Below, piece by piece: positions 33,071 through 62,180 of a stretch of DNA of 64,000 bases (position 1 is the stretch's first letter; each line of letters starts with the position of its first letter). The notes under the pieces were generated by a model. It saw only the letters and a program-made list of their open reading frames with translations, did no database searches and was not told the origin of the DNA. Origin of the DNA: Candidatus Moraniibacteriota bacterium (GTDB lineage: Bacteria; Patescibacteriota; Minisyncoccia; Moranbacterales; JAPLXC01); the NCBI GenBank assembly GCA_026396275.1, contig JAPLXC010000005.1, positions 1,615 to 65,614 on the forward strand. The letters are read 5' to 3'. Position numbers and translations under genes: made by a program.

Positions 33071-33637
33071 CTAACTTGCGAGCAACGCCGCGGGATTGAA
33101 GTCGCTCCAGTCGTCGTCAAGCCAGCGGCCGTGCCAGTGCCACCTGCCGCCGTGCCAGTCGAGGTAACGGACGCTGAGGTAGCCAGTGGAGTCGCGATAA
33201 ATCGTTCCCCAAAAAAACACGTATTTGTCTTTCCATTCCTCAGGAATAAGGTGTGGATTGGCAAGTAGATAATCAAGGACGTTGGCGTTGAGAACTGGCA
33301 TTTTTTCCAATTCCTTGTGCAGTATGTTTCCCTCGATCACTTTTCTATCCCTTTGCTTCTTAGAAAGATAAAGTGAGATTTCTGTCGGATCCCACTTTAA
33401 CTGCCTGCCCTTTTTGTGCCTAATCACATTCCATCCGCTTGGGACGAAGGGATCCGCATCACAGTTGATTACATGGTCGATAAGCTTAATTTCTGCATAA
33501 CCAAGTATTACCTGACGAACTTGAGCAAGGATATCGCCCTCACTTAATTTTTTTATCTCTGCATTTGTCCAATCTCCGCGCCGAAACGCGGCTTTTAACT
33601 CCCCAGCCTGGTCAACATCGAGCATTATTTCGCTCAT
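33071..33637 (-). CDS. hypothetical protein with His/Trp-rich GC-rich C-terminal tail
   Basis: 188-aa ORF. The last ~40 codons (...WHGGRWHWHGRWLDDDWSDFNPAALLAS) are about 60% GC, against ~38% locally. Confidence 0.5.
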   Translation of the reverse strand: MSEIMLDVDQAGELKAAFRRGDWTNAEIKKLSEGDILAQVRQVILGYAEIKLIDHVINCDADPFVPSGWNVIRHKKGRQLKWDPTEISLYLSKKQRDRKVIEGNILHKELEKMPVLNANVLDYLLANPHLIPEEWKDKYVFFWGTIYRDSTGYLSVRYLDWHGGRWHWHGRWLDDDWSDFNPAALLAS

Positions 33638-34002
33638 CGTTAACTCCTTTCTTTTTGCAACAGTGTTCTTGCGAACGTGTTGCGGTTATTAAGAACATTT
33701 ATCCCGCTAATGCGGAATACCGGCCATTTTTATGACCAACGCTTAATTGTACACCTAAACCGGCCGACTGTCAAATGCCGGAGTCAATTTTTGGTTTAAA
33801 TGAAGTATTTATTAGCTCAGATTTTAAATTATATTCACTAAAAGCATATCTTAAGATATTTTATTACACTTCCAAACTTTAAAAAATCAATAACTCCCAT
33901 GGATTGCGACCGCAATTTATGGCAACCATAAGAAAAATTCTAAAATCTTTTGACACTTTGCTCCGATCGGGGCATACTGTCAAATAAATTATTTTTGGCG
34001 AG

Positions 34003-35280
34003 CTACTTTTTACTCTTTATAAGCTCTACTAATTTTTGAATATCGAAAAGTGTCGGTTTATTTTCATTTCTCTTCTTCACTTCCACTCCCCCGGCTTTCA
34101 ATGATTTTTCACTTACCACAACACGATATGGAATACCGATAAGATCCGCGTCGGCAAATTTCTCCCCGGCGCTCGCTTCACGATCGTCATGCAGCACTTC
34201 AATTCCATTGTCCTGCAATAATTTATATATTTTATCAACCTCTTCATCAATTTTGATTTTTGACCCGCCTGCCGGCGAGGCAGGTTTTTGATTTTTGATT
34301 TTGAGCAGGTGCACCTGGTAAGGTGCAACTGCGATTGGCCAGATGATTCCTTTTTCGTCATGATGAAGCTCAACAATCGTTCCCATAAGGCGATTAAGGC
34401 CGATGCCATAACAACCCATGGTAATTAATTTGTCTTTTCCGACTTTGTCTTTGACAGTCAAATTAAACGGCTTGGTAAATTTATCCCGAATCTTGAAAAT
34501 ATTCCCGACTTCAATTGCTTTTTCAGTTCTGAACTTATCAGTGCCGCACTGGGGGCATTGGGGCGTTTCATGTTTAATTTCTTTGTTAATCGCCACCTTG
34601 CATTTATCGCAGATATATATGGTATCTTCGCCGGCTTCGGAGAGGGTCTGAAATTCATGGGAATATTTGGAAAAAGTGCCGCCGGTGGCAAAAGTAAGGT
34701 GGGTTTTTCCGCCAATGCCTGCTTTATTAAAGATGTTAAAGTAACTTTTCTTTACTTTTTCGTAGTAATTATTAAGATCATCCTCATTAAGATGAAAAGA
34801 ATAGAGATCTTTCATTAAAAATTCCCTTCCCCGCAGCAGCCCGGACTTTGGCCGCAGCTCCATCCGGAATTTGTTCTGAATCTGATAAGCGTAAAAAGGG
34901 ATATCTTTGTAGGAATGGATGTATTTTTGAACAAGGGGAACAATCACCTCCTCATGAGTTGGCCCCAGGGCGAATTCACGCCCGCCCGAATCCTTGACTT
35001 TATACAAATCATCCATCGTGTTCCAACGTCCGGTTTTTTCCCAATTTTCCTTAGGCTGAAGCGCCGGCATAAAAATTTCCTGCCCGCCGACAGCGTTTAT
35101 TTCTTCCCGGATTATATTCTCTATCTTTTTCATTACCCGGAGCCCTAGTGGAAGAAAAGAATAAACCCCGGCCATTAATTTCTCCACAAAACCGGCTCGA
35201 ATTAGAAGCTGGGCATTGGCGCTCGTCTCGTCCTTCGGTGCCTCTTTTTGGGTTTTAGTGAAAAGCTTGGACTGCAACAT
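34003..35280 (-). CDS. proS: prolyl-tRNA synthetase (no editing domain; Zn-ribbon insertion)
   Basis: Class II motifs and an anticodon-binding domain. CDKC...CPQCG ribbon. Confidence 0.9.
   Translation of the reverse strand: MLQSKLFTKTQKEAPKDETSANAQLLIRAGFVEKLMAGVYSFLPLGLRVMKKIENIIREEINAVGGQEIFMPALQPKENWEKTGRWNTMDDLYKVKDSGGREFALGPTHEEVIVPLVQKYIHSYKDIPFYAYQIQNKFRMELRPKSGLLRGREFLMKDLYSFHLNEDDLNNYYEKVKKSYFNIFNKAGIGGKTHLTFATGGTFSKYSHEFQTLSEAGEDTIYICDKCKVAINKEIKHETPQCPQCGTDKFRTEKAIEVGNIFKIRDKFTKPFNLTVKDKVGKDKLITMGCYGIGLNRLMGTIVELHHDEKGIIWPIAVAPYQVHLLKIKNQKPASPAGGSKIKIDEEVDKIYKLLQDNGIEVLHDDREASAGEKFADADLIGIPYRVVVSEKSLKAGGVEVKKRNENKPTLFDIQKLVELIKSKK
34262..34306. repeat. GC-hairpin plus TTTTGATTTTTGATTTTG element embedded in-frame in proS
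   Basis: Identical 22-nt core to 8228..8256. Read on the minus strand it encodes ...KIKNQKPASPAGGSK... inside ProS. Confidence 0.5.
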
Positions 35281-40394: not shown

Positions 40395-40934
40395 ATGAAA
40401 ATAATAATCGGTCTGGGTAATCCCGGAAAAAAATATGCGAATACCCGCCATAATGTCGGGTTTATGATAGTGGATAAATTGCGGGAAGCGTGGGACTTCT
40501 CTGCTTTTGAATTAAATAAGAAATTTAATTCTGAAATTTTAGAAGGAAATATAGATGGAAAAAAAATAATGCTCGTCAAACCGCAAACTTTCATGAATTT
40601 ATCCGGCGAAGCAGCAAGAAAGATTTTAGATTTCTATAAATTGACGCCGGCCGACATTATTGTTATTCACGACGATTTAGATATTGATCTTGGAAAATTC
40701 AAAATTTCCGACGATTCCTGCGCAGCAGGACATAACGGTGTGCAGGATATTATTGATAAATTAAGCACACAAAAATTTAAAAGAGTAAGAATTGGAATCG
40801 AGGGCGAAGAAAAAAATAAAAGCCGGACAGTCCCCAGCGAAGATTTCGTGCTTCAAAAATTTGAAGATGTAGAATTAGGAAAAATAGAAAAAGTTTTAGA
40901 AGAAATTCTAGAAGAGCTAAGAAACTCTTTATAA
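40395..40934 (+). CDS. pth: peptidyl-tRNA hydrolase
   Basis: MKIIIGLGNPGKKYANTRHNVGF. Confidence 0.9.
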   Translation: MKIIIGLGNPGKKYANTRHNVGFMIVDKLREAWDFSAFELNKKFNSEILEGNIDGKKIMLVKPQTFMNLSGEAARKILDFYKLTPADIIVIHDDLDIDLGKFKISDDSCAAGHNGVQDIIDKLSTQKFKRVRIGIEGEEKNKSRTVPSEDFVLQKFEDVELGKIEKVLEEILEELRNSL

Positions 40935-40971
40935 TAATCTAGTCACTTTATAATAACCAAAATAAAAGTCA

Positions 40972-41000
40972 TATTACACTATCTGTCGGCCGACATAAGG
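40972..41000. promoter_or_regulatory. 28-bp palindromic operator-like site ACAC-N5-GTCGGCCGAC-N5-GTGT (copy 1)
   Basis: Imperfect palindrome. Two related copies sit upstream of the wHTH gene. Confidence 0.45.
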
Positions 41001-41052
41001 TGTCAAAAGATATTAAATATGCAAATCCATAACTTCCGAATTTATGTTCTGT

Positions 41053-41634
41053 TTAGATAATATTTTTATAAACTTTTTCTACAAGCAAATAATTGACATA
41101 ATTTCCTATTTTTCTTCTTTTTATTTCTTTTATCAAGTCCTCTGTTAAAGAATGCTTGCTTATAAAAACGCTCTCCTGTAATTTTCTGTAGTTTAGAAGA
41201 TATAATTCTTGCCTTAACCAGTTGCGTATTTTTCTTTTATCTTCAGGAATATCAAAAATGACTACTCTGAACTTATTGTCCCATTTTTTATCTAGGGTCT
41301 TTTTTCGATTTAAAACATATTTGGCCAGTATTTTCCCCATTTTTGTTAACACATACTTGTTCCCCCTTTTTTCCACGAAGCCCTGTTTTTGTAATCTTCG
41401 AATGCTCTGTCTTATTGTATTCTCTTTAAAACTGGTCTTTTTTGAAGAGGGTCCTGGCCAATCAAATGATGAGGCGGGAAGATCCGCATAAATTGATGGC
41501 GATAAGAAAGCATTAATAGTTAATTCTCCCATTTGGATTAAGGCAACAAATACCCAGGCCGAAGCATTGAGGGAATTTCTCACAACATTCCTGGTTATAG
41601 CTCTTACCAGTTTCAAGTTTTTCTTCTTTGTCAT
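41053..41634 (-). CDS. winged-helix DNA-binding protein fused to a Cas2-like (VapD/Cas2 fold) C-terminal domain; putative regulator
   Basis: N-terminal wHTH-like (...IRRLQKQGFVEKRGNKYVLTKMG...). C-terminal FRVVIFDIPEDKRKIRNWLRQELYLLNYRKLQESVF...GNYVNYLLVE follows the Cas2 pattern (YDV...RRR...YGxRVQxSVFE...R.YLL). Confidence 0.5.
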   Translation of the reverse strand: MTKKKNLKLVRAITRNVVRNSLNASAWVFVALIQMGELTINAFLSPSIYADLPASSFDWPGPSSKKTSFKENTIRQSIRRLQKQGFVEKRGNKYVLTKMGKILAKYVLNRKKTLDKKWDNKFRVVIFDIPEDKRKIRNWLRQELYLLNYRKLQESVFISKHSLTEDLIKEIKRRKIGNYVNYLLVEKVYKNII

Positions 41635-41679
41635 ATAACCATCTTTTAAAATTAATTCTATATTCCCGCTAGCTATATT

Positions 41680-41708
41680 ACACTATCTCACGGCCGGAGT
41701 AAAGTGTC
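41680..41708. promoter_or_regulatory. 28-bp palindromic operator-like site (copy 2), overlaps the putative promoter of 41053..41634
   Basis: ACACTATCTCACGGCCGGAGTAAAGTGT. On the minus strand a TAATAT -10-like hexamer follows directly. Confidence 0.45.
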
Positions 41709-41754
41709 ATATGACACACTATTTTAGTATTGCTTGTTAAATTAATATTAATTA

Positions 41755-41783
41755 TGTTACATAATCTGGCGGCCGGCGTCAAG
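41755..41783. promoter_or_regulatory. 28-bp palindromic operator-like site (copy 3)
   Basis: ACATAATCTGGCGGCCGGCGTCAAGTGT. Confidence 0.4.
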
Positions 41784-41831
41784 TGTAGTATAATTTATAC
41801 TCTATTATTTCTGAACGCTATTTTGGAAAAT

Positions 41832-42127
41832 AAAAAAGGCAGGTCTTGGTTTCCTAGATCTGCCTTTAAAGATTACTTTCTTTTGCCTTCCACAATTCCA
41901 CCCGCAGTGGCATCCTCACCTGAAAATTCAGGATCAGATACGCTTAACTACTTGCGGACATTAAGGAGGATCGCCCGCTTTGGACTGCGAGCAGAACCAT
42001 GGAAAGCAAACGACGAAGTCGTCCTGAACCCACCTTTGGCGGGTGAAGGATCTCGCAATAATACCGCGAATGGCGTTATTTATTAGATTCATCGACTTCG
42101 TTTGGAATGACAGATTGTTAGGAACTA
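41832..42127 (-). ncRNA. candidate ~300-nt structured transcript of unknown class (own promoter and terminator)
   Basis: Minus-strand promoter TTGACA-17-TATACT at 42134..42162 and an intrinsic terminator hairpin plus T-run at 41832..41866. About 48% GC. No ORF of 60 aa or more. tmRNA, RNase P and SRP hallmarks not found. Confidence 0.35.
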
Positions 42128-42133
42128 ACAATA

Positions 42134-42162
42134 CAGTATAGCAAATTACCGATCATTTGTCA
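42134..42162 (-). promoter_or_regulatory. consensus sigma70 promoter TTGACA-17nt-TATACT (minus strand)
   Basis: Read directly from the sequence. Divergent from dprA. Confidence 0.5.
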
Positions 42163-42193
42163 ACCCTCAAATTTGTGCTAAGATAAAGGCATT

Positions 42194-43297
42194 ATGGAGA
42201 ACAAAAATGACCTAAAACATTTAAACGCTTTGAATAAAATCCCAGGCGTCGGTTCCCAGAAAATGAAAATGCTCCTGAAATTTTTTAAAAGTTCCGAAAA
42301 TATCTGGAAAGCGGATTTGAAAAATCTCAAGGAAAGCAAAATTGGCGAGGCATTGGCTCAAAAAATTATCACGGAAAGAGAAAAAATAAATCCCAGCCTG
42401 GAATGGGAAAAATTAGAAAAAGAAAATATCAGAATAACAACCTTCACTGATGATAATTATCCCAAGCTTCTTAAAGAAATTATCAGCCCGCCGTATATAT
42501 TATATGTAAAGTCCGCCGATATGAATTTTAATTGGAATTCACAGCCGATGGTTGCCATAGTGGGTTCGAGAAAATTCACCCAGTATGGAAAACAGGTGGC
42601 GGAAAATTTCGCCAGAGAGCTGGCGAGAGCCGGAATTTACATTGTGAGCGGAATGGCTTATGGCATTGATTCATTCGCCCACAGGGGAGCGCTGGAAGGC
42701 GGAGGAAAGACCGTTGCCGTGCTGGGTAGCAGTTTAGAAGACAAAAATATCGGCCCGCGGTCCAATTATGAATTATCCCGGGAAATTATGGAAAACGGCG
42801 CGCTAGTTTCTGATTTTCCGACCGGCATTGTCTCTCTTCCCGGCAATTTTCCGGCGCGCAATCGAATTATGGCAGGACTGTCTCTTGGGACAATTGTAAT
42901 TGAAGCGGCGCTTGACAGCGGGAGTTTAATTACGGCCAATTTAGCGCTTGAAGCCAACCGCGAGGTCTTCGCCGTTCCCGGCTCTATCTTTTCTCCCCAG
43001 TCGGAAGGAACGAATAAATTGATTAAAAGCGGCGCCAAATTAGCCGCCAGCGTCACCGATATTCTAGAAGAATTAAACATTGAAAAGAAAGCCAGCGAGG
43101 AAAAAATTAAAAACATAATTCCGGCCACTCCCGAAGAAGAAAAAATTATCAAAAACTTGACGCATGAACCGACTCATATTGACACAATCACCAAACTTAC
43201 TAAACTGGAAGCAAGTGTCGTCTCTGGGACGCTCGCAGTGATGGAAATGAAAGGAATGATAAGGAATATCGGGGGGCAGAATTACATTGTTATATAA
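42194..43297 (+). CDS. dprA: DNA processing protein DprA (Smf)
   Basis: Rossmann-like DprA core (VAIVGSRKFTQYG...VSGMAYGIDS) and a C-terminal wH domain. Confidence 0.85.
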   Translation: MENKNDLKHLNALNKIPGVGSQKMKMLLKFFKSSENIWKADLKNLKESKIGEALAQKIITEREKINPSLEWEKLEKENIRITTFTDDNYPKLLKEIISPPYILYVKSADMNFNWNSQPMVAIVGSRKFTQYGKQVAENFARELARAGIYIVSGMAYGIDSFAHRGALEGGGKTVAVLGSSLEDKNIGPRSNYELSREIMENGALVSDFPTGIVSLPGNFPARNRIMAGLSLGTIVIEAALDSGSLITANLALEANREVFAVPGSIFSPQSEGTNKLIKSGAKLAASVTDILEELNIEKKASEEKIKNIIPATPEEEKIIKNLTHEPTHIDTITKLTKLEASVVSGTLAVMEMKGMIRNIGGQNYIVI

Positions 43298-58105: not shown

Positions 58106-58389
58106 CATATTTGTTCACTTATTACTAAGTGTATGGACTATAACTTAATCCTTTTTTATTTTGTACAAAATTAGGATTGCTAACATTTAGTCTCTACGGG
58201 TTTGTAATTATTTACAATTCCCTCGGTATTGTCCAAACATATTTTGGATTTTACCGAAATTAGTTAGCTTCTCTTTTAACATTACTGTTAAAAGCCGCCA
58301 TGAATGATGTCATTAAATATCCTCGGGTTCAAACAGTAAAATCTCCTTTAACTAAAAAGCTAATGAAGCTAATAGCTAAAAGCTGCTTT
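58106..58389 (-). mobile_element. group-I-like intron in 23S rRNA at the I-CreI-type site (E. coli ~2593; AACCGU|CGUGAGACAG)
   Basis: A 284-nt insertion in the invariant GUCGUGAGACAG segment. Intron ends in G. No ORF. Confidence 0.65.
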
Positions 58390-58453
58390 ACGGTTTGAAC
58401 CCAGCTCGCGTACCGCTTTAATTGGCGAACAGCCAAACCCTTGGGAGCTTCTC

Positions 58454-58493
<40 letters not shown>

Positions 58494-58720
58494 TCCTCCG
58501 TCGATATGGACTCTTGGGAGGAATAAGCCTGTTATCCCCGGGGTAACTTTTATCTGATGATCTTCCACCCTCCTATGAGGGATGGTCGGTTCACTAAATT
58601 CCACTTTCGTGACTGATTGACTTATGGGTCTTTCAGTAAAGCTGGCTTGTGCTTTTGCGCTACCGGCCCGATTTCCATCCGGACCTAGCCAACCTTAGTA
58701 AACGCCTCCGTTGCATTTTG

Positions 58721-58751
<31 letters not shown>

Positions 58752-59117
58752 AGGCACTGTTCCCAACCCGGTACCAATAACCAACAACTTACAACTCACA
58801 ACTAAAATAACATTAAAAGAAATGTTATCAGTTGTTTGTTATCAGTTAGTCATTAGTAACGGGTTAGGGTTAGAACTAAAACTTCAGCAGGGTGGTATTC
58901 CACTGTTGCCTCCATCCCGACCAGAATCGGGACTTCATCGGCTCCCACCTAAGCTCGGCAGCTAAAACTCTAATCCAATGCCAAGTTGTAGTAAAGCTCC
59001 ACGGGGTCTTTTCGTCTTGCCGTAGGTCGACGGCATCTTTACCGTCATTGCGATTTCACCGGGTCCTTCGTCGAGACAGTTACCAAGTCGTTACGCCTTT
59101 GATGCGGGTCAGAATTT

Positions 59118-59358
59118 CATTTTTGCTGTTTTGCTTTCGCAAACAATAGACTATATCTTCACCCCGATATTATATCGGGGGCCGACGTGTTACCCACAAT
59201 AATTGTGAGTCCAGATTAAATAAATAATCTGAGTCGTTACGGGGTCACTAGGACTTCCCACGGTATTACCATATCCTTCAAGGACTTAGGCTTCACCGTT
59301 ATTAGTCGGATTGCTCATGCCGCATTGCTGCGGCATTCAGGCAAATGTCTGACACTTT
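59118..59358 (-). mobile_element. group-I-like intron in 23S rRNA near E. coli position 1951 (CCUUGUCAGGU|AAAUUCUGACC)
   Basis: A 241-nt insertion. 5' exon ends in U and the intron ends in G. Homologous to intron A. No ORF. Confidence 0.65.
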
Positions 59359-59778
59359 ACCTGACAAGGAATTTCGCTACCTTAGGACGATTATAGTTAT
59401 CGCCGACGTTCACTGGCGCTTCGGGAACAAGCTTTCACCCGCTCCGTTAACGTTCCAGCACTGGTCAGGCGTCAGCCCCTATACTTCCCCTTGCGGGTTT
59501 GCAGAGACCTGTGTTTTTGGTAAACAGTCGCCTGGTAAACTTTCGCTGCGTCCCGCCCTTTTGGACTAAAATTTTAAGGCTTCATGAATTTTATTTTCAC
59601 AAGCTTAAAATTCATTCCCAAAAGGGCGGGAAAGACATTTCGCGAACTTACGTCTAGTTTTTTTGCCGAGTTCCTTAACGAAGGTTCTCCCGTTCACCTT
59701 GGGCTACTCGCCCAGTCCACCTGTGTCGGTTTTCGGTACGGACGCTGTTAGATTCGCTCGTATCGCGCTTCGCGCGAT

Positions 59779-59925
59779 ACATCGCTAAATTCAAAAATCA
59801 AAGTGCAAAATGCAAAATTAAGGAACTCGCTACACTCGTAATTTTTTATATTTTAAATATAAAATAATCAGTCGCGAAACGACACCAAAATTTTGATTTT
59901 TGATTTTTGCATTTTGAATTTGAGT
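59779..59925. repeat. AT-rich family-2 inverted-repeat element inside a 23S variable region (domain III)
   Basis: Arms CAAAAATCAAAGTGCAAAATGCAAAA / TTTTGATTTTTGATTTTTGCATTTTG, like 16187..16382. Confidence 0.45.
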
Positions 59926-61085
59926 GAGTATCACACGAAAGGTGATACGAACGACATAGAGGTTTTTCCTGGTAGCGCGCTCGTTCAGCTTCCCCTGATA
60001 AAATCAGAGTTCGCCGCGTTTCTTGAAGTAATGCCCTGCGGATTTGCCTGCAGAGCCCTCTTAAAACGCGGACGTTAATCCAATAAATCGCCTGAATTAC
60101 TGCACTACGTCACCTCATTTATAAACTAATAGCGGTGCCGGAATATTAACCGGCTGTCCATCGACTACGCCTTTCGGCCTCGCCTTAGGACCGACTAACC
60201 CTGGGATGATCGTCATTGCCCAGGAAACCTTGGACTTGCGGTGTGCCGGGTTTTCACCGGCATTGTGGTTACTCATGCCAACATTCTCACTTCCATAAAC
60301 TCCAGTCCGACTCACATCGAACCTTTGCTGCTTATGGAACGCTCTCCTACCGCCAATGCAAAGCATTGGCCCATATCTTCGGTACCATGTTTAGCCCCGT
60401 TACATTTTCGGCGCGAATCTTCTGGTCTAGTGAGCTGTTACGCACTCTTTAAAGGGTGGCTGCCTCTAAGCCAACCTCCTAGATGTATAAGAAAATTCAC
60501 TTCCTTTCCCACTTAACATGGATTTAGGGACCTTAGATGATGATTTGGGCTGTTTCCCTTTTGAGATCCGACCTTAGCGCCGGATTTCTGACTGCCTCGG
60601 TAAATATCGCAAGAATTCGGAGTTTGGTTGAGAACCCTGCGGCGAACCGCGAGTCCTCATTCAGTAGCTCTACCTCTTGGATACAATGTCGAGACGCTAG
60701 CCCTCAAGCTATTTCGGAGAGAACCAGCTATTGCCAAGCTCGGTTGGAATTTCTCCTCTACACACAAGTCATCTCCCAGTTTTGCACGGCTGGTGAGTGC
60801 GGGCCTCCCCCCGATTTTACTCGGGGTTCACCCTGCTCATGTGTAGCTCGCCTGGCTTCGGGTCTAGTCCGCGCGACACGCCTTGTACCACAATGGTACA
60901 AGGCAAAGCCCATTTAAGGCTCGCTTTCACTGTGCATATCCTCCAAAGGAGTTTATACAAGTCACGCAAAACTAACTCGTTGGCTCGTTCTACAAAAAGC
61001 ACGCAGTCACCCCGACTTGCGTCGGGGCTCCTACTCTTCGTTTGCATATGGTTTCAGGTTCTATTTCATCTCCCTCACCGGGATA

Positions 61086-61122
<37 letters not shown>

Positions 61123-62180
61123 ATCTCGCACAATATTTAGCCTTGGAAGATTAGTGCTCCCAGATTCAGACGGGATTTCTCCGGTCCCGCCCTACTTGAG
61201 AATAATAACCGTAAAGATGTTTTCTTTTTATGTACAGGGCTATTACCTTCTATGGCCGCTCTTTCCAGAGACGTTCTATTAAAAAAACATTTTATAACTC
61301 TACCTCCGCAGAATGTAACACGTTGAGAAAAATCTCAAGATGTTACAAACTCGGAGCGTTACCATCCCGCAACGCCGCAATCACCAAAGTAATTACGGTT
61401 TTGGCTTTTCCCCTTTCGCTCGCCACTACTTGGGGAATCACTATTGTTTTCTTTTCCTCCTGGTACTAAGATGTTTCAATTCCCAGGGTGCGCCATACGC
61501 ACCTATGAATTCAGCGCGTATTAATCCCGCCGAGGCGGGATTGGATTGCTCCATTCGGATATCCCCGGATCAAAGCTTGCTTGGCAGCTCCCCGAGGCTT
61601 ATCGCAGCCTGCTACGTCCTTCATCGCTTGTACGAGTCAAGGCATCCACCATATGCATGAGTAAACCTTTCTCTTTGTTAGCAGTTAGCAATTACTTAAC
61701 TTTAGCTAACTTTTTCTTAATTTACGACCTACTTAAAACTTACCACTTTTCACTGACTCATCTTTCCGCAAAACGCGAACAAGCCAATGACAGTTGGTTA
61801 AGACCTATTCAGTTTTCAAGGAGCGATTACTGCGGAAATAAATTAGAACAATATTATTCAAACTTATTTCAACACTAATCATCAACCTGTCACCCACTCA
61901 CCAGTTTCGAAAGCATTCTGGTGATTTCCTAAAACTGGATACACAGTCGCGCCTTCGGCTTGATCTGAAAAAATATTAAATATTGATAAAAACTGGTGAG
62001 GGATTTGTTTCTCTTATCAAAATCAAAGATTTTGAAGAGAAACAAAAAACCGCTTGTTCGGCGGGCTGTCTCCTCAAGAACAACTTAAAAATAAAGAATT
62101 TACCCGCTTCTTTTTCCAATATGCTTTTTTCGAATTGTCTTTACTATATGTTTGAAAAAATAATTAGTTAGTCAGTTTTC

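Follow-up and report, generated by a model that had tools for sequence, protein, structure and literature searches.

We report a conserved bracket of palindromes around the gene of a short PaaX-like protein in bacteria of the candidate phyla radiation (CPR, or Patescibacteria). The gene was analysed in a stretch of 64,000 nucleotides (nt) from a Candidatus Moraniibacteriota bacterium (contig JAPLXC010000005.1), referred to here as the window, where it occupies 41053..41634 on the minus strand, encodes 193 amino acids (aa) and has two copies of an imperfect palindrome upstream and one downstream. A bracket test was used in which the 300 nt upstream of the gene were compared with the 300 nt downstream, a shared 28-mer at 21/28 or better being scored as a match. 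By this test the gene was bracketed in 73 of 78 non-redundant related CPR loci (~94%), as against 5 of 98 control open reading frames (ORFs) taken from the same loci. This association of gene and palindrome across a CPR family is what is new here and is our main result; in the literature we found no description of a short PaaX-like CPR family. It may be noted that CPR bacteria have very small genomes with few recognisable regulators, and that their transcription control is almost unknown. In nearly every member of the family that we examined, the sequence on either side of the gene directly gives the probable binding site of its product, and the family may serve as a ready-made set of naturally orthogonal putative regulator-operator pairs and as an entry point into CPR gene regulation.

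Palindromes on both sides of the gene

On dividing the 73 bracketed loci by orientation, 54 were found to have direct copies and the remaining 19 inverted or ambiguous ones. When only direct orientation was accepted, at 22/28 or better, 55 of 79 loci were matched against 2 of 157 controls. Loci L009-L011 had seemed to be without repeats, which proved to be an artefact of this direct-only search, the copies there being inverted. The closest relative, L025, has a frameshifted gene and retains both the upstream and the downstream copy. The shared flank sequence is always a palindrome, of 28-38 bp, with its centre typically 20-100 nt ahead of the ATG on one side and 15-70 nt past the stop codon on the other. 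Outside the window the element is often a perfect palindrome of 28-36 bp (e.g. L003, L020, L021, L035 and L069), and two or three tandem upstream copies are present in L029, L032, L022 and L083, an arrangement also seen in the window. Its core, CGRYCG, is nearly invariant across the family loci. The arms vary by lineage, and also by paralog within one genome (e.g. L018, L021 and L029 of one metagenome-assembled genome), and from such comparisons they appear to co-evolve with the protein encoded between the copies. CGRYCG itself is rare in these AT-rich genomes, with 54 sites in the whole window; 20 kb of L083 have 10, and 4 of these lie in elements. Type II restriction enzymes such as BsiEI recognise CGRYCG, and two of its variants are the sites of PvuI (CGATCG) and EagI (CGGCCG).

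The copies also stay close to the gene. A total of 301 kb of flanking sequence held 7 further copies, and all of these except the window's own lie no more than ~3 kb from the gene. The 20.6-kb locus L083 has three copies upstream and one downstream of the gene and none elsewhere within 10 kb on either side. The gene that follows the downstream copy is co-directional in 41 of 63 loci and convergent in 22 of 63 (including the window, where it is pth), and as the downstream copy is present whichever way the next gene points, it is not simply an operator of that gene. A first-pass annotation, made from the letters of the window and a list of its ORFs, had called the repeats operator-like. This gains strength from the 73 of 78 bracketed loci and from the upstream copies of the window, which overlap promoter-like sequence (see below), and on sequence grounds the palindromes are very likely the cognate operators of the 193-aa protein.

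In the window itself, the three copies at 40976-41003, 41680-41707 and 41759-41786 share one orientation. The degenerate pattern ACAYWATCTNNCGGCCGNNNTMARGTGT has exactly 3 matches in the 64 kb, whereas 0.00 are expected from 100 dinucleotide-preserving shuffles, so the three repeats that had been described before are real; two of the three intervals given for them were 4 nt off. The consensus proposed earlier, ACAC-N5-G(T/C)CGGCCG(A/G)C-N5-GTGT, describes the downstream copy and not the other two. What the three gene-side copies have in common is ACAY-N7-CGGCCG-N7-GTGT, with similarity reaching ~40 nt. They had been called imperfect palindromes, and this is correct, both upstream copies being poor ones. 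The number three falls short, since a scan for the architecture (outer ACAC/GTGT and a CGRYCG centre, scored out of 14) found 4 sites at 12/14 or better, and only these, against 0.4 in shuffles. Both scans return the three gene-side copies, all on the minus strand, which we name as candidate operators. The proximal upstream copy, O1 (41680..41707), reads ACACTTTACTCCGGCCGTGAGATAGTGT on the gene strand and has its centre 60 nt before the ATG. The distal upstream copy, O2 (41759..41786), is located 79 nt upstream of O1 with its centre 139 nt before the ATG, and is the most degenerate of the four. The downstream copy, O3 (40976..41003), begins 50 nt past the stop codon, in the gap between the regulator gene and the convergent pth gene (40395-40934, plus strand).

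The fourth copy, which had been missed, lies at 33953..33980 in inverted orientation (plus strand), scores 13/14 in the architecture scan and reads TTGACACTTTGCTCCGATCGGGGCATACTGTCAA. It is the best palindrome of the four and shares an identical stretch of 11 nt, TCTTTTGACAC, with O3. A class II aminoacyl-tRNA synthetase gene (34003-35280, minus strand) has its stop codon 23 nt before this copy, which in turn lies 316 nt upstream of an orphan ORF of 188 aa (33071-33637, minus strand); lying 7.7 kb off, the fourth copy suggests that there is at least one further target. The 188-aa ORF is a possible additional target of the regulator. It has no Pfam hit and a C-terminus rich in Trp and Asp, and we rejected it as a second family gene as it shows neither a Pfam hit nor profile similarity to the family. 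Around the fourth copy, the intergenic region (33640-34002) also contains a 26-bp palindrome at 33896-33921, CCATGGATTGCGACCGCAATTTATGG, with a CGRYCG-type core and unrelated arms, which may belong to a paralog whose gene is elsewhere in the genome, and a degenerate copy at 33749-33775 that is apparently shortened internally. No Rfam family matched at the repeats, either in the whole window at gathering thresholds or in 40900-42250 at E up to 10.

A palindrome at the two ends of a gene may act as double-stranded DNA or as a folded transcript. The second alternative would make the elements RNA or single-strand hairpins that stand at both the 5′ and the 3′ end of the transcript, for example as terminators, attenuators or mRNA-stabilising stem-loops, and which a Cas2/VapD-like domain might bind or cut. 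The perfect palindromes of 28-36 nt in L003, L020, L021, L035, L069 and other genomes are compatible with this, as are the four central bases, which are not always symmetric and thus loop-like, and the run of A on one side and of T on the other in some lineages, e.g. L026. Also, the remote copy at 33953, just past a gene end, folds well as RNA (-14 to -16 kcal/mol, z of -4.6 and -6.0). The three gene-side copies differ from it in this respect, as they fold no better than shuffled sequence (z = -1.0, -0.4 and +1.3).

We aligned 121 elements on their centres and calculated the symmetry at each distance from the centre. It is 98% at positions 2-3, 81% at position 4, 60-69% at positions 5-9 and 76-93% at positions 10-18, and falls to background past position 20; the central pair is always purine-pyrimidine. 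The least symmetric positions are therefore those beside the would-be loop, where a stem selected for pairing should not be weakest, and the profile is better matched by a dimer touching the centre and two outer major-groove patches. Mismatches are mostly not compatible with wobble pairing and show no strand bias (78 vs 81, with 237 of other types). Between the upstream and the downstream copy of a locus we counted 153 one-sided differences and 22 compensatory ones, the latter being 22 of 57 double changes, which is about the chance level. A T-run does not consistently follow the downstream copies, and generic terminators would be neither specific to the family nor matched to the upstream copy of the same gene. 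Given the symmetry profile, the types of mismatch, the few compensatory changes and the folding energies, we read the element as a predicted double-stranded binding site of a symmetric dimer, and consider the hairpin alternative highly improbable.

The protein and its family

The motifs FDIPE, LQESVF and NYVNYLLVE quoted in the first-pass annotation are all present in the 193-aa product, as is the combination of a winged helix with a Cas2-fold half that was proposed there. Pfam places the domain PF20803 (PaaX_M, "PaaX protein central Cas2-like domain") at residues 116-187 with 62.6 bits against a cut-off of 24 (E = 3.7e-17). An AlphaFold2 model built from 36 homologs (predicted local distance difference test 83.9, predicted template-modelling score 0.77) has a helix-turn-helix of the winged type (wHTH) at residues ~20-97 with a disordered insert at 50-64, a long linker helix at 98-115 and, at 122-185, a beta-alpha-beta-beta-alpha-beta (ferredoxin-like) domain. 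On comparing this model with the PDB by Foldseek, the PaaX of E. coli W (8a39) ranks first (E = 6e-6, 195 aligned columns), followed by the PaaX-like 3l09 and 3kfw and then by Cas2 chains on the C-terminal half, with probabilities of ~0.97-1.0 over residues 122-185. A PDB sequence search with the family profile returned only generic winged helices (eS19, AspA and DtxR) and neither PaaX nor Cas2, so that only Pfam and the comparison of folds reveal the relationship. The protein ends 6 residues past the PaaX_M match, the last element of the model being strand 180-185, and no match to PaaX_C was obtained from Pfam at E up to 10. Among the residues invariant across the 36 homologs are W118, D119, K121, R123, F127, D128, P130, E131, R137, W139, R141, Y149, Y182 and Y189. 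Of these, D128 is the aspartate that ends strand beta1 (in FDIPE) and is retained as in Cas2.

The protein is best described as a minimal PaaX-like regulator of CPR bacteria, with a wHTH and a Cas2-fold domain and without PaaX_C. The first-pass annotation had suggested a solo Cas2 newly recruited as a regulator. This has to be given up, as a wHTH followed by a Cas2-like central domain is the N-terminal and central architecture already known from the PaaX family (PF20803; PMC9493321). PaaX consists of a wHTH with a dimerisation motif and a C-terminal five-helix domain that binds phenylacetyl-CoA; its operator is a long inverted repeat, TGATTC(N27)GAATCA, and it represses its own Px promoter by steric hindrance (PMC9493321). 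The CPR protein resembles it in the predicted winged helix followed by PF20803 and in the best whole-length structural match, and the CPR palindrome has a similar span to TGATTC(N27)GAATCA and similarly wide half-sites, with symmetric blocks 10-18 bp on either side of the centre. By analogy, it may work like PaaX. It differs in its size (193 vs ~305-316 aa) and in the missing five-helix PaaX_C, which binds phenylacetyl-CoA in PaaX, and for this reason it is not a phenylacetate regulator. It also retains the Cas2-type aspartate, no paa genes are found near it in the window or among the neighbours in 63 loci, and its putative operators, with their invariant CGRYCG centre, stand on either side of the gene as a bracket. 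The full-length PaaX equivalog model (TIGR02277) gives 31.2 bits against a cut-off of 264.55. The features that mark PaaX proper (PaaX_C, an equivalog match and paa linkage) are thus absent, and so are those that mark Cas2 (cas1 and an array). The family shows the PaaX scaffold without its effector domain, and ties the Cas2 fold, if our reading of the palindrome is right, once more to the recognition of a defined length of double-stranded DNA.

The identical protein in the NCBI database is named "CRISPR-associated endonuclease Cas2", and one may ask if it is a genuine nuclease of the Cas2/VapD type, either a remnant of CRISPR adaptation or a toxin, the repeats then being CRISPR-like or regulatory. 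Apart from the name, the NCBIfam cas2 model (TIGR01573, 26.4 bits against a cut-off of 24.5), the PADLOC match to Cas2 (E = 1.6e-6) and the aspartate D128 at the end of beta1 point in this direction. The same holds for the repeats, which at 28-37 bp and partly palindromic are similar to CRISPR repeats. PADLOC also matches the wHTH (residues 64-107) to Csa3, CasR and CARF-wHTH profiles (E = 6e-7 to 6e-4, the Csa3/CasR-type hits lying at 6e-7 to 2.5e-6). Yet Pfam CRISPR_Cas2 (PF09827) stays under its threshold (18.8 vs 23.8 bits) while PaaX_M is far over its own, and the best full-length structural match is PaaX. As had been stated earlier, the window contains neither an array nor another cas gene: Tandem Repeats Finder detected no repeat-spacer array in the 64 kb, and PADLOC, run on the 53 window ORFs of at least 90 aa, returned no cas protein other than the weak Cas2 and Csa3 hits of the 193-aa protein itself. 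No cas family, cas1 included, is among the window genes or the commonest neighbour families of 63 loci, and the repeats flank the gene instead of forming repeat-spacer arrays. We therefore rejected a CRISPR remnant, both array and cas genes being missing from the window. The toxin-like module that had been considered also fails to find support, as no antitoxin-like partner gene is conserved and the Pfam search gave no VapD-type match. On the whole a Cas2/VapD-type nuclease is very unlikely indeed. What the CPR protein shares with Cas2 and VapD is the predicted fold of residues 122-185 and the aspartate ending beta1, with only a marginal TIGR01573 hit for Cas2, and it differs from both by its fused wHTH. 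Its likeness to Csa3/CasR-type regulators is confined to the generic winged helix, as it has no CARF domain and no CRISPR context. The name Cas2 arose because TIGR01573 just exceeds its cut-off and, given a window without an array or other cas genes, is best regarded as a misnomer and an annotation artefact. Correcting it is of use beyond this gene, as the misannotation is widespread; public naming of the family is inconsistent, with 'CRISPR-associated endonuclease Cas2', 'PaaX family regulator', 'PadR family regulator', 'RecG-like helicase' and 'hypothetical' all in use.

A word-indexed search brought up 171 homologs, ~180-230 aa long, with PF20803 in 120 of the 120 that were listed. An exhaustive profile search yielded 2,378 cluster representatives (50% identity) at E = 1e-10 or better, of which the best 150 have 79-231 aa, mostly ~165-230. 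Scanning one genome per species gave 344 encoding loci. The best 80 of these are all from CPR/Patescibacteria-type assemblies, among them Moranbacteria, Saccharibacteria, Microgenomates, Sungiibacteriota and Daviesbacteria, and it is in such assemblies only that the short family, as distinct from PaaX, has been met so far. Several genomes encode two or three divergent paralogs, with 39-49% identity to the query; the window has a single member (hmmsearch). Here the neighbours of the gene are pth, lytR, dprA and topA, and relatives with 61-68% protein identity keep the gene in the slot between dprA and pth. The immediate neighbours in 63 loci are diverse and unrelated housekeeping genes, among which there is no conserved partner.

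Promoters and proposed regulation

A sigma-70-like match on the gene strand coincides with each copy in the window. The promoter-like site ATGACA-17-GATAGT (41710..41682) overlaps O1, and TTGACG-17-TAACAT (41782..41754) lies on O2. The proximal copy had been said to abut a -10-like hexamer, which agrees with the first of these sites and with a nearby TAGAAT (41655..41660, minus strand). This second candidate -10 hexamer, read from the sequence, follows O1 by 19 nt, precedes the ATG by 20 nt and is an alternative to the GATAGT inside O1. Across the family, -10-like hexamers are ~3x enriched at +5..+34 nt from the centre of the upstream copy on the gene strand. In L026 and L027 every copy consists of a 42-nt core followed ~24 nt later by an extended -10 (TGGTAAAAT and variants), and each precedes a co-directional gene, namely the regulator, a fusion of cyclodipeptide synthase and substrate-binding protein (CDPS-SBP), a racemase or the next ORF. 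This fits a regulator that controls its own promoter and also, in some lineages, a few genes beside it.

The mechanism that we infer begins with the Cas2-fold domain, which by analogy with PaaX and Cas2 would make the protein a symmetric homodimer. The dimer would bind the palindrome of ~28-36 bp on double-stranded DNA through three recognition zones, one at the near-invariant CGRYCG centre and one in each of the two arms, which are specific to the lineage and lie 10-18 bp from it. With two copies on or beside the gene's own promoter in the window, binding would block RNA polymerase, and negative autoregulation of this kind, as by PaaX at its own Px promoter, is by that analogy the likeliest reading. 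The likeliest role of the downstream copy would be that of a second operator, serving either as a loop partner for the upstream sites or as a roadblock that insulates the small unit from its dense neighbours. In phage lambda the cI gene lies between the OR and OL operator clusters, and long-range looping gives cooperative and tight autoregulation. The CPR gene likewise lies between copies of its putative operators in a layout that permits looping, but the protein belongs to an unrelated family and the bracket, of ~0.7 kb, encloses only the regulator gene.

Some observations weigh against this proposal. The Pfam model of the PaaX wHTH (PF07848) reaches 14.5 bits, below its threshold of 24.8. 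The invariant residues D128, E131, Y149, Y182 and Y189 would not be needed in a domain that serves dimerisation only. Downstream copies show zero enrichment of -10 hexamers, and the register of the promoter hexamers relative to the palindrome varies by lineage; in L026 and L027 it stands upstream of the -35 position, a placement that would fit activation too. A downstream operator is in itself unusual, and in the window it stands between convergent genes with no known gene's promoter to control. Also the regulated function cannot be named, as the neighbours are unrelated housekeeping genes, and the boundaries of insertions and deletions coincide with the palindromes, a point taken up in the next section. 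With these points counted, we still think it fairly probable that the protein is a minimal PaaX-like regulator that binds its cognate palindromes as a dimer and represses its own gene.

Breakpoints at the palindromes and other features of the window

Comparison of related loci places several rearrangements at the palindromes. L027 equals L026 plus a 1.5-kb segment, carrying the CDPS-SBP gene, that lies exactly between two copies, and the single copy of L026 is a hybrid of these two. Between the same two copies a racemase gene is found in L026 and a Mur-ligase-like gene in L030. At first the central GGTC/GACC seemed to be flipped at both sites when L026 was compared with L027, but this largely dissolved on inspection; only one orthologous site differs, because the downstream copy of L026 is a recombinant derived from two copies of L027. 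In L001 a diversity-generating retroelement (Avd and reverse transcriptase) lies between two copies where L004 has a single one, and an rve integrase gene has a copy on one side and, on the other, a remnant with an internal deletion, where L004 again has one copy. Synteny breaks off at the upstream copy when L003 is compared with L004, and L029 with L031.

The genes found between the copies are of some interest in themselves. Those of one lineage encode a cyclodipeptide synthase fused to an SBP_bac_3 domain in L027 (3706-5133), an Asp/Glu racemase in L026 (3685-4488) and an 840-aa Mur-ligase-like protein in L030 (3728-6250). All three have to do with the chemistry of peptides or of the cell wall, and together they may constitute a small local regulon. 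The retroelement (L001 1130-3961, also in L002 and L005) comprises bAvd, RVT_1 and two unannotated ORFs immediately upstream of the family member. In L001 an extended -10 (TGTAGAAT) comes after the copy at 1130, so that the regulator may control the retroelement. The remnant at L001 6056-6075 has lost its inner 20-odd nt, leaving the outer ends gattatAC and TGTGTataa, whereas its ortholog at L003 1359-1386 is intact; it is an example of palindrome instability.

To rationalise these breakpoints, it may be proposed that the palindromes serve first of all as sites of recombination or as cassette boundaries, like integron attC sites, dif modules or REP/RAYT elements (repetitive extragenic palindromes with their REP-associated tyrosine transposases). 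The protein would then be a site-specific factor (a nuclease, recombinase or accessory protein) that captures, excises or shuffles the segments between copies, and autoregulation would be secondary. The exact placement of the L027 segment with its hybrid counterpart in L026, the different genes of L026 and L030 between the same copies, the retroelement and rve gene of L001 as against single copies in L004 and the ends of synteny all agree with this. So does the module as such, which has a site-gene-site layout within ~750 bp like that of an insertion sequence, occurs in unrelated housekeeping contexts without a conserved partner, and keeps D128, E131 and three tyrosines invariant. The 11-6-11 layout of the element, which we take to be similar to that of tyrosine recombinase core sites, may be added here. 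Yet deletion between directly repeated units of 40-46 bp, together with insertion into the spacer of tandem operators, explains every breakpoint case, and for this reason we regard a dedicated recombination function as rather unlikely. No recombinase and no HUH/Y1 transposase fold is present in the Pfam hits or fold matches of the 193-aa protein, and no recombinase is conserved beside the module in 63 loci, the rve gene of L001 being a single case. Within-genome paralogs are divergent and not near-identical as in active mobile elements, the dprA-pth position is kept in relatives, the copies are not dispersed in the 301 kb of flanking sequence, and an extra gene in L016 is not flanked by a second copy. 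We therefore hold it unlikely that recombination is the primary role of the palindromes. It is quite unlikely, in particular, that the protein belongs to a self-contained CPR module for DNA transactions, built on the Cas2 fold and working without Cas1, a tyrosine recombinase or an HUH enzyme, in which it nicks, bridges or recombines the palindromes; the retroelement, the cyclodipeptide synthase gene, the racemase gene or an insertion sequence would then be captured, exchanged or deleted between copies. Should the palindromes be recombination sites after all, the finding would be considerably more important.

RAYT genes are single-copy genes flanked by their own cognate palindromes, with a palindrome family for each paralog and largely vertical inheritance, and the CPR gene is similar in all these respects. 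It differs in that its protein does not have the HUH/Y1 transposase fold and in the low copy number of its palindromes in the sequence covered, a single remote copy being present in 63 kb of the window and no further one in the 10 kb to either side of the gene in L083. Gene segments bounded by the sites and present in some loci but absent from others, as expected of integron and dif modules, are seen in L026/L027/L030 and L001/L003/L004, where deletion between direct repeats explains them equally well. A site-specific tyrosine recombinase is not conserved beside the CPR module. The minimal PaaX-like autoregulator is the reading that we retain for the window.

Apart from the regulator, the region between its gene and dprA contains a candidate for an unclassified structured RNA of ~300 nt (41826-42130, minus strand). 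Its GC content rises to 56% in a region of ~33%, and it has both a strong promoter-like site (11/12 matches, with TG; 42163..42135) and, at 41867..41835, a canonical terminator hairpin. Its folding energy is -117 kcal/mol (z = -8.75). No Rfam family is matched, and L025 retains part of the stretch at the corresponding relative position (2166-2284). An ORF of 118 aa on the plus strand (41730-42086) that overlies the candidate is probably spurious. Rfam also matched two group I introns, at 58115-58316 and 59128-59368 (minus strand), within or next to the 23S rRNA gene (58333-61672), and some window ORFs matched homing-endonuclease models of PADLOC.

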